Below, piece after piece: positions 38,801-43,707 of a stretch of DNA of 64,000 bases. Made by a program: the position numbers and the translations under genes. The number at the start of each line of letters is the position of its first letter. The stretch's first letter is position 1. Location: positions 1-64,000 of the IMG/VR virus record IMGVR_UViG_3300017761_003320; one strand, given 5' to 3'. Source of the stretch: a virus. The notes beneath the pieces are model-generated. The model searched no databases. It was not told the DNA's origin and was given only the letters and a program-made list of their open reading frames with translations.

Positions 38801-38808
38801 TATAAATA
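38801..38808 (+). promoter_or_regulatory. T4-type late promoter
   Basis: Exact TATAAATA 23 nt upstream of csgF ATG (38832), SD AGGAGG. Confidence 0.75.
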
Positions 38809-38831
38809 AGGTCGATATCATAGGAGGTACC

Positions 38832-39272
38832 ATGAAAAGATTGGTAGTCCTTGCTATGTTTTTTGCTCCTATGTCTAATGCGAGTGAGCTTACCCATTCT
38901 TTTAATTCACCATCGTTTAATGGCGCGGGCTATAGTTCCCACGTTTTGACGATTTATCAGCTTGAGCAAGCTGCAAAGCAGCGCCAAGAAGATCGCCGCA
39001 GGCAAGAAATTGCCGCGGCTCTTCGTGCTGAGCAAAACAGTCCAGGTAATCAGTTTATGCAGGCCTTCCAGTCGCTTGTATATTCACAGCTTGCAAAAAG
39101 CATGTCTGAACAGTTATTCGGTGAAACACCTCAGAATAACGGCAGTCTTTCCTTTAGCAATGTTACTATAGCTTGGGTTCGATCTGGTTCTGAAGTATCC
39201 ATGACGATCAATGATCGATCAACCAATTCTGTTACAACAATAACAGTTCCCATAGGAGCCTTCGCATTTTAA
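38832..39272 (+). CDS. csgF: curli assembly protein CsgF-like
   Basis: Signal peptide then ASELTHSFNSPSFNG (CsgF F.NPxFGG-like), C-terminal TTITVP; adjacent to csgG. Confidence 0.8.
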   Translation: MKRLVVLAMFFAPMSNASELTHSFNSPSFNGAGYSSHVLTIYQLEQAAKQRQEDRRRQEIAAALRAEQNSPGNQFMQAFQSLVYSQLAKSMSEQLFGETPQNNGSLSFSNVTIAWVRSGSEVSMTINDRSTNSVTTITVPIGAFAF

Positions 39273-39289
39273 AAATCCTAGCTTTTGCT

Positions 39290-40045: not shown

Positions 40046-40058
40046 CATAGAGGACAAA

Positions 40059-40715
40059 ATGTTTAGGTTACTAACGTTTGCCATGATGCTGCTATTTGCG
40101 GTGCCCGCGGCGGCGCAGACCAATAGCGTATACATCGATCAGATCGGTTCATCCAATGTGATCGATATCACTCAGGCTGGTTCTGGTAATCGCATAGGTG
40201 CATCAGTAACACCTAGCACGATCACAGGATCAACAAATACTGTCACCATCACACAGACTGGTGATACGAATGCGCTTGACTATTCTATAAACGGCGGAAC
40301 CAATACGGCCACACTAGCATATACTGGTAACGGTAATACTGCAACTCTGACATGCGGTAATAATACCACATCATGTAATGATGCTGCTATTACTCATACA
40401 ATTATCGGTGATGACAATATCATCAGCACATTGATGACTGGTAATGGTCTGACAAATACTCTGACCGTCACAGGAAATAGCAATAACATTTCCACAAACC
40501 AAAACGGTAATGACAAGACACAGAATATGACATTGACTGGTGATAGTAATACTATTGTGGCCACTCAAGCTGGTGTTGGTACGCATAGCTTGACAATGTC
40601 TGTCACAGGTAATTCAAATACCTATGATATTAGTCAGGCTGGTGCTGTAACAAATACGTTGGTTATCAATACACAAGGATCGAATAATAGCATCATAATT
40701 AGCCAGACTAACTAA
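40059..40715 (+). CDS. curlin-repeat protein (CsgA/CsgB-like)
   Basis: Signal peptide; repeated N-x6-(Q)-x-G-x2-N units (NSVYIDQIGSSNVIDITQAGSGN, NTVTITQTGDTN...). Confidence 0.8.
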   Translation: MFRLLTFAMMLLFAVPAAAQTNSVYIDQIGSSNVIDITQAGSGNRIGASVTPSTITGSTNTVTITQTGDTNALDYSINGGTNTATLAYTGNGNTATLTCGNNTTSCNDAAITHTIIGDDNIISTLMTGNGLTNTLTVTGNSNNISTNQNGNDKTQNMTLTGDSNTIVATQAGVGTHSLTMSVTGNSNTYDISQAGAVTNTLVINTQGSNNSIIISQTN

Positions 40716-41653
40716 TGTTTCGCTGGCTGCTATTAGCCTTGCTGCTACCAGTTATTGCATCGGCTAACGTCGGTTCGATAATACAGCAGCAAGGCAATTC
40801 TGTGCAGATTAAAAGAGGATCTGCTACCTTACCTGGTGGGGTAAATGCTGGCGTAAATATGAATGATGCGATAGTCACTGGTCTATCATCATTACAATTA
40901 CGTTTTCAAGATAATACGACGGCCAGCGTCACAGAGAATAGCAGATTTGTCATCGATGATTTTGTATATGATCCAAGCCGTGGTGCAGGAAGATTAAATG
41001 TTCGCGTGGCTGTCGGCACAGTGAGATATGTCTCAGGTCAGATAGCACGCAGCAATCAGCAAAACGTGCAGGTCAATACACCAACAGCCGTCATAGGTGT
41101 GCGTGGTACAGATTTCTTTATGACTGTCGATGAATCTGGGCAAAGCTTAGTGGTGCTTGTTCCTAGCTGCAATCAGCAAGGTAATTGCTACACTGGTAAG
41201 ATATCTGTGACTAATGATGGTGGTACAGTCGAGATGGATCAACCATTTCATGCAACATATGTACCAAGCGCGACGGTAGCTCCTACTGTTCCTGTGCAAC
41301 TGAATATTTCAATATCTGATATCAATAACAATCTGGTGATAGTAAAACCACCACAGATCATGCTATTGATGCAGGAATCCCAGTCATCACAACAATCATC
41401 AGAAGCACAGCAATCTGAGAATCAGTTACAGATTGTACAGACGGAGACTCGTCGACCAATTCGTAGGGTTGGAGAGCTAATTATAACTGAAGAAGGTCAG
41501 AGAACAATAGCAACTAGAGAATCAACAGGCCATACTGCAATCGTAAGAATGACTGGTGGCAATACAAGGGTAACAGTAACACATGATGGTGCCGCTGCAA
41601 CAGAAACGGTTGGTACAGGATCTAATATAGTAAATATAACACAGAAAAGGTGA
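40715..41653 (+). CDS. secreted FecR-domain protein
   Basis: Signal peptide; D.IVTG..LRFQDNT..VTENS..IDDFVYDP, TPTAVIGVRGTDF. Confidence 0.85.
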   Translation: MFRWLLLALLLPVIASANVGSIIQQQGNSVQIKRGSATLPGGVNAGVNMNDAIVTGLSSLQLRFQDNTTASVTENSRFVIDDFVYDPSRGAGRLNVRVAVGTVRYVSGQIARSNQQNVQVNTPTAVIGVRGTDFFMTVDESGQSLVVLVPSCNQQGNCYTGKISVTNDGGTVEMDQPFHATYVPSATVAPTVPVQLNISISDINNNLVIVKPPQIMLLMQESQSSQQSSEAQQSENQLQIVQTETRRPIRRVGELIITEEGQRTIATRESTGHTAIVRMTGGNTRVTVTHDGAAATETVGTGSNIVNITQKR

Positions 41654-43707
41654 GTGTGATGAAAAAATATGTACTTGCACTATCAGTATTACTGGTCATG
41701 ATCGCGCTAAAGGTATTAGACCCATGGCCAGCGCAGGTTGCACGTCTTAAATATTTTGACTTTCTAGAACGTCAGGCTGATATGGTACTTGATGATTCTA
41801 TTGTGCTAGCCAATATTGATGAGGCTGCATTACGAAAGCATGGGCAATGGCCATGGTCACGAGACGTTATTGCAGAATATATTCAAGATATTAGCAATCG
41901 TGGTGCGGCGCTTGTAGTCGCTCCGATTCTATTTGCAGAACCTGATCGCGCAGGAAAAGATAGTGTTCTGGAGCAAGCATTTCGCGAGCATCCAGTAGTA
42001 ATCGCACAGGTTCCTACGACTCAGGTGCGCGAACCATATGCAAGACCACGAGGCTCTGCGCTAATTGGCCCACCAATTGCTGATGTTTTACCAAGCTGGC
42101 CAGGTGCGATAGCACCGCTTCCACGTCTTGCTGAAGAAGCTGCTGGTGTTGGTATGGTTGCGACTATGCCTGAGCCAGATGGTGTGGTGCGTCGTAGCCC
42201 AATGCTTGTCGCAGTTGGTGATAAATTCTACCCATCAATTACCTTTGAGACATTGAGAGTTTTATCTGGCGAGATAAGCTTTCAAGTCAGATCAAATGAA
42301 GCTGGTGTCGAGGTGCTACGCATTCCAGGTCAGCCTCTCATGTATACTGATCCGAATAGTCGCATCTGGCCTAGTCGCGCATTTACATATCAATCATTTT
42401 CTGTCACAGATATGCCTGAGGATCTAGACGGAAAGATTGTCATATTATCCATGACGGCTGAAGGCTTTAGTAATCCTGTCGCGACAAGTCATGGTGAAAT
42501 GTTACCGGGAACTGTGATTGCAACAGACCTATCATCAATATTGAATCAAGTTCTATTGGTGCGACCTGCTGAAGCTGATTTCTATGAGCTTATAGCTATT
42601 TTGTTATTTGGTCTGGTTATGGTATTCTTAGCCATAAGAGTCAAACTGGTTCTAGCTGGTCTGTTATTCTTGCTGCCAGTTTCTGGTTTAATTGCAGCTT
42701 CATGGTTCGCGCATAGCTATTACTTCATACTATATGATGCTGTGCTGCCAGTATTATCATTGCTTCTGGTATTTGGTACTGGCGCTTTCTCACGCGCGCT
42801 TGAAGAGTTCCGCTTGAAGCAACAGATCAAGAAACAGTTTGGTACGTATCTGTCACCAGCGATGGTCGAGAAGCTACAAGAGAATCCGGATCTGTTGAAG
42901 CTTGGTGGTGAGGAGCGCGAGCTGTCAATCATGTTCACAGACGTGCGCGGCTTCACAGCTATCTCCGAACACTATGGTAAAGACGTGCAAGGCCTGACTA
43001 AGATCATGAATCGTTATATGACTGCAATGACGGCCTCAATACTTCGCAATGAAGGTACGCTTGACAAATACATCGGTGATGCACAGATGGCATTCTGGAA
43101 TGCGCCACTTGATGATAAAGATCATGCAAAAAATGCAGTCAAAACAATGCTAGAGATGCTAGACAACCTAAAGGAGTTCAATGATGAAATCGCAAAAGAA
43201 GGTGTCCCGGCGTTTGGTATGGGGCTTGGGATCAATACTGGTACTGTCGTCGTTGGCAACATGGGCAGTGATCAACGCTTCGACTATACTTGCTTGGGTG
43301 ACTCTGTCAACCTTGCCTCTCGACTTGAAGGCCAGTCAAAACCTTATGGAGTCAGCAACGTCATCGGTACCCTCACTTACCGATACGTTAGAGAAGAATA
43401 CCTCTGCCTTGCCCTCGATACCATTGCGGTAAAGGGTAAGAAAGAAGGGGTCGACATCTATACTGTGCTTGGTAGACCAGAAGATATTGTTCATGTCAAG
43501 ATGGATCTAGATATGCACGCGAACATGATGAAATCATATAAGAGCCGTCGATTTGATGACGCAATCTATTATGCAAAGCGTCTCAAAGGATGCTTTGGTG
43601 GTAAGATGGATGCTTATTATGCTATGTGGATGGAGCGCTGTGAAGAATTAAAAAGTGCTGGTTTATCAGAAACTTGGGACGGTGTTTTCAGAGCAAATAG
43701 TAAGTGA
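41650..43707 (+). CDS. CHASE2-domain class III adenylate cyclase
   Basis: IDEAAL..GQWPWSR, FAEPDR, DGVVRR; three TM helices; FTDVRGFT, DKYIGD, DYTCLGDSVNLASRLEG, VKGK. Confidence 0.93.
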   Translation: MSVMKKYVLALSVLLVMIALKVLDPWPAQVARLKYFDFLERQADMVLDDSIVLANIDEAALRKHGQWPWSRDVIAEYIQDISNRGAALVVAPILFAEPDRAGKDSVLEQAFREHPVVIAQVPTTQVREPYARPRGSALIGPPIADVLPSWPGAIAPLPRLAEEAAGVGMVATMPEPDGVVRRSPMLVAVGDKFYPSITFETLRVLSGEISFQVRSNEAGVEVLRIPGQPLMYTDPNSRIWPSRAFTYQSFSVTDMPEDLDGKIVILSMTAEGFSNPVATSHGEMLPGTVIATDLSSILNQVLLVRPAEADFYELIAILLFGLVMVFLAIRVKLVLAGLLFLLPVSGLIAASWFAHSYYFILYDAVLPVLSLLLVFGTGAFSRALEEFRLKQQIKKQFGTYLSPAMVEKLQENPDLLKLGGEERELSIMFTDVRGFTAISEHYGKDVQGLTKIMNRYMTAMTASILRNEGTLDKYIGDAQMAFWNAPLDDKDHAKNAVKTMLEMLDNLKEFNDEIAKEGVPAFGMGLGINTGTVVVGNMGSDQRFDYTCLGDSVNLASRLEGQSKPYGVSNVIGTLTYRYVREEYLCLALDTIAVKGKKEGVDIYTVLGRPEDIVHVKMDLDMHANMMKSYKSRRFDDAIYYAKRLKGCFGGKMDAYYAMWMERCEELKSAGLSETWDGVFRANSK

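Follow-up and report, generated by a model that had tools for sequence, protein, structure and literature searches.

Curli genes were reported in pelagimyophages by Zaragoza-Solas et al. 2020 (PMC7029224). A conserved viral region combining CsgF, CsgG, CsgA/B, FecR, a 'histidine kinase' and an adenylate cyclase was then described by Wittmers et al. 2022 (PMC9599517). This region occurs in pelagiphage podo- and myoviruses, was found at all 65 GOV2.0 stations and is expressed in metatranscriptomes; one or two 'histidine kinase' genes lie ahead of it, and more distant podovirus copies may be without the cyclase. For the phage Melnitz, Buchholz et al. 2022 (PMC9004378) proposed a role in lysis timing. 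Neither CHASE2 nor a curlin-like tail on the FecR protein is mentioned in these papers. Here, we analyzed a 64,000-nucleotide window, the first 64 kb of the 155,201-bp viral record IMGVR_UViG_3300017761_003320 from IMG/VR, in which genes for CsgF, CsgG, a curlin, a FecR-domain protein and a CHASE2 adenylate cyclase follow one another between positions 38801 and 43707. The block is almost certainly a copy of the published 'viral curli' cassette of SAR11 and OM43 phages. The initial annotation of the window described the block as one five-gene unit with a cyclase that should make cyclic AMP and held that no such coupled system had been described in a phage. The first part stands, in that the five genes form one conserved unit with a predicted active cyclase. 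The claim of novelty was wrong, given PMC9599517 and the GenBank annotation of the phages HTVC008M and Melnitz. What the present analysis adds to the published cassette is the fold of the FecR adaptor and its putative curlin-like tail, FecR-CHASE2 pairs in bacteria, a pair of small membrane proteins (M1 and M2) and a probable ATT start for csgG. Our preferred reading, to which we give a probability of roughly 45%, is that the unit is expressed late and works in the envelope, where the FecR adaptor would signal curlin export or assembly to the CHASE2 cyclase.

The features of the block are as follows, with coordinates given in the window:

38801-38808, plus strand: T4-type late-promoter-like motif TATAAATA, read directly; it overlaps the stop of a 54-amino acid open reading frame (ORF) at 38645-38809.
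38832-39272, plus strand: csgF, 146 amino acids; signal peptide and N-terminal CsgG-binding motif; Pfam CsgF PF10614.
39266-40045, plus strand: csgG, predicted lipoprotein, 259 amino acids from ATT 39266 (251 from ATG 39290); Pfam CsgG.
40059-40715, plus strand: curlin-repeat protein, 218 amino acids; signal peptide or hydrophobic N-terminus and SNxxIxI(S/T)QxG repeats; putative amyloid subunit.
40715-41653, plus strand: exported FecR-domain protein, 312 amino acids; signal peptide, FecR/PupR-type beta domain at about residues 20-190, linker at 205-247 and beta-rich tail.
41462-41650, plus strand: putative curlin-like C-terminal tail of the FecR protein, residues 250-312, ending in GSNIVNITQKR.
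41650-43707, plus strand: CHASE2/class IIIb adenylate cyclase, 685 amino acids; first transmembrane helix, periplasmic CHASE2 at residues 17-324, membrane bundle, cyclase domain at 424-605 and conserved C-terminal extension.

The domains named in the initial annotation were recovered by Pfam, in all five genes above the curated cut-offs. Specifically, matches were obtained for CsgF (PF10614, E 1.3e-19, 71.1 bits), CsgG (PF03783, E 4.4e-52, 176.9 bits against a cut-off of 20.8), Curlin_rpt (PF07012, E 3.1e-8, with six stretches at a lax E-value), FecR (PF04773, E 3.4e-11; also phrog_37870, E 2e-64), CHASE2 (PF05226, E 3.8e-35) and Guanylate_cyc (PF00211, E 2.2e-20). The close spacing held as well: along csgF-csgG-curlin-fecR-cyclase, the successive junctions are gaps of 17 and 13 nucleotides, an overlap of 1 nucleotide (TAATG) and an overlap of 4 nucleotides.

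The same gene order is found in Pelagibacter phage HTVC008M (gp014-019) and Methylophilales phage Melnitz (gp99-104), which also have neither CsgE nor CsgD. The cyclase is annotated in both records, the FecR domain protein in that of Melnitz. CsgG of the present phage is 46-50% identical to its counterparts in these phages, and the cyclase is 38-42% identical. HTVC008M and Melnitz differ from this phage in having another curlin gene, placed between those of the FecR protein and the cyclase; here there is none, and csgG probably has a non-ATG start. Compared with the csgBAC-csgDEFG system of E. coli and Salmonella, the phage shares the CsgG pore, here a probable lipoprotein, the pore-binding N-terminus of CsgF and a secreted curlin-repeat subunit. 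Unlike that system, it has no CsgE, CsgC, CsgD or separate CsgB, and it adds the FecR adaptor, the cyclase and M1/M2. Many other cassette copies carry an additional short curlin-like ORF (about 90-200 amino acids) between fecR and the cyclase gene, with a Cys-rich C-terminus ending in VNQY or YTKH (loci L011, L013, L021, L022, L047, L050, L051, L053, L060 and L070-L073); it does not occur in the window.

Conservation of the block was evaluated in two sets of viral loci, each consisting of the best 80 matches to the proteins of this phage. Retention of fecR and the cyclase gene beside csgFG had been named beforehand as the test of the coupling. Of the csgG-seeded loci, 54 extend at least 6 kb downstream, and every one of these carries the curlin, FecR and cyclase genes. 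In the cyclase-seeded set, all five genes are present in 55 of 80 loci, colinear in 51 and with an inverted cyclase gene in 4. The block is cut by a contig end, inside it or right beside it, in 22 of the remaining 25. The other loci, L033, L043 and L083, have 1.3-2.1 kb of upstream DNA and no FecR match; they are not decisive because FecR-cyclase spacers reach 4.5 kb elsewhere. These data strongly support csgF-csgG-curlin-fecR-cyclase as one conserved unit. As the sampling was of the best 80 matches, there is no conflict with the remark in PMC9599517 on distant podovirus copies. A scan of one genome from each of 185,579 prokaryote species, using two peptide patterns, yielded the whole block on only three contigs, all binned into 'Bacteroidetes' metagenome-assembled genomes. 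Bacterial ownership of the block was rejected for L086, the one contig of the three with readable flanks: these carry phage-specific PHROG families, as expected of a binned phage contig. No bacterial chromosome with the whole block was found, a result that is limited to the two patterns and does not prove bacterial absence.

The cyclase was aligned to the solved class III cyclases 3r5g (CyaB of Pseudomonas aeruginosa), 1wc0 (CyaC of Spirulina) and 6fht. Residues D431, K473, D477, T547, N554, R558 and K595/K597 of the phage protein line up with these structures. They correspond to the metal-binding Asp residues (D431/D477), the substrate-selecting Lys and Thr typical of class IIIb (K473/T547) and the transition-state Asn and Arg (N554/R558). 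The first six do not vary across 12 viral homologs, the most distant of which has 49% identity. The alignment to 3r5g and 1wc0, together with this invariance, bears out the earlier statement that the catalytic residues are intact and of class IIIb, and the cyclase should be active. Class IIIb cyclases are often responsive to bicarbonate. Hydropathy peaks lie at residues 8-26, 311-329 and 359-377; an extra hydrophobic stretch at about 334-354 was seen by eye only. Translation may start at ATG 41659 rather than at GTG 41650.

The AlphaFold2 model of the FecR protein, built from 39 sequences, has a mean predicted local distance difference test score (pLDDT) of 80.9 and exceeds 90 over residues 20-190. 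It comprises a beta domain (20-190), a disordered Q/S-rich linker (205-247) and a beta-rich tail (250-310). In Foldseek, the beta domain best matched 6ovk_R, the C-terminal cell-surface signalling domain of PupR, and 4m0h, the anti-sigma factor BDI_1681, with a probability of 1.0 and E-values of 2-4e-3, which are above the tool's cut-off of 0.001. The phage protein thus shares the periplasmic domain fold of FecR/PupR anti-sigma factors, as also seen from its Pfam match. Unlike them, it carries only a cleavable-looking signal peptide ahead of this domain and no further transmembrane helix. An assignment as an anti-sigma factor was ruled out by the missing N-terminal cytoplasmic anti-sigma domain, the missing transmembrane helix and the missing extracytoplasmic function (ECF) sigma factor; in the genome, the sole sigma-like gene encodes a gp55-type late factor. 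A gene for a TonB-dependent transducer is lacking as well. From its sequence and predicted fold, the protein is best described as a periplasmic adaptor, not an anti-sigma factor.

These features bear on the proposal, raised in PMC7029224 and PMC9599517, that CsgG and CsgF form an ungated channel for the uptake of nutrients or cofactors, with FecR acting in its classical sense in iron transport. In its favor, the genome encodes no CsgE gate. However, the proposal leaves the curlin, the curlin-like repeats on the FecR protein and the cyclase unexplained, and it sits poorly with a FecR protein that has no anti-sigma domain in a genome that has no ECF sigma factor. We consider it very improbable.

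The C-terminal tail of the FecR protein may provide a sequence link between the adaptor and the amyloid. In all viral FecR homologs, the C-terminus is a strand of the form G-S/T-x-x-I-x-I-x-Q-x. For comparison, the curlin of this phage ends in SNNSIIISQTN and has internal repeats such as SNVIDITQAG. An hhalign comparison between the curlin family and the final 53 columns from 55 viral FecR proteins gave an E-value of 1.4e-4 and a score of 25.9, the alignment running end-to-end along the last two curlin repeats. Sixty column shuffles scored 8.2 on average (standard deviation 1.75, maximum 12.9) and a reversed query scored 13.9, placing the real score about 10 standard deviations above the shuffles. 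Among distinct FecR proteins, 49 of 55 show the C-terminal pattern hydrophobic-x-hydrophobic-x-Q-x0-3-end, compared with 21 of 79 curlins and 24 of 1738 other ORFs. These results are moderate evidence that the tail resembles curlin repeats, and they lend some direct sequence support to the link from amyloid to FecR that the initial annotation had suggested.

The pairing of a FecR protein with a CHASE2 receptor has counterparts in bacteria. In Burkholderia, the 'BiofilmReg' operon encodes a LysM-FecR protein and a CHASE2 histidine kinase, as does the PA4035-like pair of P. aeruginosa (PMC5192318). As in the phage, the exported FecR protein is encoded directly before the CHASE2 receptor, and its second domain anchors to an envelope polymer. 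The differences are in the output, a histidine kinase versus a cyclase, and in the anchor, LysM for peptidoglycan versus the curlin-like tail. A Campylobacterota cluster combines a FecR-domain outer-membrane protein with a CHASE2 cyclase. In Sinorhizobium meliloti, the CHASE2 cyclases CyaD1, CyaD2 and CyaK are reported to be activated in an NsrA-dependent manner. The NsrA system and the Campylobacterota cluster resemble the phage unit in having a CHASE2 class III cyclase activated via an envelope partner, which in Campylobacterota contains a FecR domain.

Bacterial homologs of the phage cyclase, with 27-34% identity, have a FecR-domain neighbor in 8 of 43 cases, and these FecR-CHASE2 pairs occur without any csgFG. 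The second module of the neighboring FecR protein varies: FG-GAP/BapA-prefix in Micavibrio, TPR plus a TonB-type barrel in Verrucomicrobia, and low-complexity repeats in Desulfovibrionaceae. The bacterial partners of CHASE2 are large and contain barrels, TPR or FG-GAP modules, whereas the phage partner has 312 residues and the curlin-like tail, and its outer-membrane part would come from CsgG and CsgF. The relay from FecR to CHASE2 suggested in the initial annotation is consistent with both the published pairs and those found here. By analogy, the FecR domain would most simply be read as coupling to CHASE2, and the second module, curlin-like in the phage, as setting what is sensed. A broader form of this idea, which we hold tentatively, is that FecR proteins are modular CHASE2 co-sensors and that the phage version is an amyloid-coupled sensor turning the state of a fibre (export, polymerisation, or contact and pulling) into cyclic AMP (cAMP), with M1/M2 as a further part. 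The tail and the bacterial pairs would turn the vague label 'regulatory' into a testable hypothesis on how CHASE2 receptors receive their signal.

That the bacterial pairs occur without csgFG shows that such a sensor can work alone, and two separate functions might be inherited together in one cassette. The fibres would then serve in aggregation ('sibling capture') or in blocking superinfection, and FecR/CHASE2 would be an independent sensor that does not sense curli. Wittmers et al. and Zaragoza-Solas et al. prefer such fibre-based roles (PMC9599517, PMC7029224), and the podovirus copies that may lack the cyclase fit this explanation. Nevertheless, coupling was complete in all of the informative csgG-seeded loci fetched, and a curlin-like tail in 49 of 55 distinct FecR sequences is hard to explain if the protein has nothing to do with curlin. 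On balance, we regard a separation of functions as rather unlikely.

The mature N-terminus of CsgF, SELTHSFNSPSFNG, aligns with GTMTFQFRNPNFGG of E. coli CsgF (6l7a), and the FxxPxFxG motif is matched. A start at TTG 38790 was rejected in favor of ATG 38832, which is preceded by the ribosome site GGAGG. CsgG scored 154 bits against E. coli CsgG (4uv3) over residues 34-249 and contains the lipobox FTG↓C. The csgG gene of this clade probably starts at ATT 39266, because ATG 39290 leaves just 7 residues ahead of the lipobox Cys, a ribosome site precedes the ATT and the ATT is retained in relatives. Specifically, AGGAG-N7-ATT would yield a normal lipoprotein signal, I/M-LKILAFAMMLGFTG↓C, and a workable signal was obtained only from the ATT. 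This codon, which overlaps the csgF stop (region 39254-39292), is kept in 4 related loci; other clades use an ATG two codons downstream that has been lost in this clade. The curlin is the only ORF with Curlin_rpt in the 155-kb genome.

The expected TATAAATA is indeed present ahead of the operon, 24 nucleotides 5' of the csgF ATG. In the late region of the 155-kb genome, (N)ATAAATA recurs ahead of several ORFs, 22-28 nucleotides from their ATG. ATAAATA before csgF is kept in 17 of 55 loci, including all of the nearest relatives and HTVC008M. A gp55-type late sigma factor is encoded outside the window, at genome positions 141977-142537 (phrog_234, E 2e-57). Based on the position of the motif, its conservation before csgF and the presence of the sigma factor, the operon is likely transcribed late.

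The initial annotation had envisaged a complete circuit from the outer membrane to the cytoplasm, which might control lysis timing, superinfection sensing or host aggregation. The mechanism that we infer, including its physical contacts, the direction of signalling, cAMP as the product and the benefit to the phage, would run as follows. Late in infection, the gp55-type sigma factor would transcribe csgF-csgG-curlin-fecR-cyclase from TATAAATA, and all five products would go to the host envelope. The CsgG lipoprotein and CsgF would form an outer-membrane type VIII secretion pore, with the single curlin as its substrate and the builder of a surface amyloid. In the periplasm, the PupR-type domain of the FecR adaptor would couple to CHASE2 of the inner-membrane cyclase, and its curlin-like tail would bind curlin as subunits, at the base of the fibre or in the pore. 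Curlin export or assembly, or a pull on the fibre, would then set the activity of the class IIIb cyclase and thereby the cytoplasmic cAMP, whose receptors might be host proteins or a phage protein that has escaped recognition. M1 and M2 would belong to the curli-cyclase unit as partner of the cyclase or as its output. If this is correct, the amyloid-coupled phage sensor would provide the first case of a functional amyloid gating a signalling system. Pared down to a single curlin, the copy in this phage, which also has the cyclase and a putative curlin-like tail on its FecR protein, may be the simplest version for testing.

Several observations weigh against this mechanism. In the pore, N55 and F56 of the E. 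coli CsgG constriction are replaced by Ser and Leu; the constriction loop aligns with one extra residue, and the Tyr corresponding to E. coli Y51 is moved by one position. Because of the replacement of N55/F56, the phage pore may differ from the classical curli channel. The absence of csgE and csgD, originally noted for the window, extends to the whole 155-kb genome, in which searches found neither CsgE nor a GerE/LuxR (CsgD-type) domain; a separate CsgB-like nucleator is also absent from the genome. As for the FecR tail, its similarity to curlin is short. Pfam Curlin_rpt gave no match at E-values up to 10, and the AlphaFold2 model of the isolated tail (all-beta, pLDDT 72) gave no meaningful Foldseek match to the PDB and no curli structure; it is because of these two results that the resemblance was rated as moderate. 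The 155-kb genome contains no cNMP-binding domain of the cAMP receptor type, and a cyclase made late is left with little time to act through transcription. Nor is TATAAATA enriched in the 64-kb window, where it occurs once versus 3.9 times expected by chance; the count alone is therefore no proof, and the promoter call rests on position and conservation. Finally, cultures infected with Melnitz showed no clumping (PMC9004378), and no experimental work on any copy of the cassette was found in the literature, including after Wittmers et al. 2022.

Downstream of the cyclase gene, the opposite strand carries three small ORFs:

43708-44025, minus strand: M1, 105 amino acids, small single-pass membrane/coiled-coil protein; phrog_18771, E 1.6e-27; its stop abuts the cyclase stop.
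44032-44184, minus strand: very basic ORF of 50 amino acids between M1 and M2; weak match to phrog_17967, E 3e-5.
44185-44466, minus strand: M2, 93 amino acids, paralog of M1; phrog_18771, E 2.3e-33; CTAAATA 22 nucleotides before the ATG.

M1 and M2 are single-pass proteins of about 100 residues with charged C-termini. Among the loci fetched, 58 have them adjoining the block; three arrangements occur, with the pair either ahead of csgF or convergent on the cyclase gene. In a tblastn search of 50,697 phage records, proteins of the M1/M2 type were found only in HTVC008M and Melnitz, both of which hold the curli-cyclase block. The corresponding pair lies nearby in these phages (HTVC008M gp011-012, Melnitz gp97-98), upstream there and downstream and convergent in the present phage. 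A search for a Pfam family of M1/M2 gave none, and in Atlas they fall into virus-only clusters, with the nearest named cluster, YvrJ at 0.89, serving as a lead only. The basic ORF between them is retained only in the 96%-identical relative L004, and it is uncertain whether it belongs to the block. The published accounts list a 'histidine kinase', unlike the present genome, in which a search of all 155 kb found no HATPase_c; M1 and M2 contain no kinase domain. In other loci, they occupy the position where the published 'histidine kinase' is drawn, and they may be what PMC9599517 labels as such.

The residues 1-20 of M1 weakly match the holin family phrog_4898 (E 2.7e-4). Identities as a holin or as YvrJ were set aside for M1/M2, the resemblances being too weak. 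The size, single membrane pass and charged C-termini of the pair, with this N-terminal match, nonetheless fit a lysis-timing device of the kind proposed earlier for Melnitz (Buchholz et al. 2022, PMC9004378), in which CsgG/CsgF would be a repurposed gated pore or pinholin-like channel, M1/M2 would resemble a holin and antiholin, and the cyclase would provide the timer input; an operon that looks late also suits such a device. However, CsgG resides in the outer membrane, which is not the site of holin action. The match covers 20 residues and has no Pfam counterpart, and the conserved secreted curlin and intact CsgF N-terminus indicate export of a real substrate. Moreover, an endolysin-like gene (5462-6112, phrog_181, E 8e-78) maps to the replication region, well away from the curli block. 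Lysis timing is therefore improbable as the function of the cassette.

The cassette is common in aquatic viromes, as seen from its presence at all 65 GOV2.0 stations (PMC9599517) and from the pattern-limited scans of IMG/VR performed here, which recovered at least 588 cyclase-bearing and at least 267 csgG-bearing viral stretches. It would supply the infected cell with functions reportedly missing from known hosts.

The record has direct terminal repeats and was judged complete, with a G+C content of 42%. It encodes T4-like replication genes, including a gp43-type DNA polymerase (phrog_262), a DnaB-like helicase and a ribonucleotide reductase. The polymerase shares about 50% identity with its cyanomyovirus counterparts, and similarity to known phages at the DNA level is limited to transfer RNA (tRNA) genes. 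This uncultured T4-like phage thus represents another lineage than the cultured SAR11 and OM43 phages in which the cassette is known.

Outside the window, the genome contains five exact TGTGA-N8-TCACA palindromes, at 75587, 75962, 77984, 78011 and 123712, compared with 0.05 expected from shuffles; four are clustered at 75.5-78 kb. Their spacing is unlike that of classical CRP sites (N6), and a tie to phage cAMP is speculative. Five tRNA genes lie just 5' of the curli-cyclase block, at 38210-38629. Rfam gave only tRNAs in the window, and no riboswitch or transfer-messenger RNA of the kind seen in Melnitz was found beside the operon. The Rfam matches included an extra tRNA at 61482-61553 (45.6 bits) that is absent from the ARAGORN list. 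Just 5' of the tRNA block, a stretch of 32% G+C on the minus strand (36361-38178) carries radical SAM/SPASM and nitroreductase-family genes. Several radical SAM genes likewise flank the cassette in the phage contig L086.

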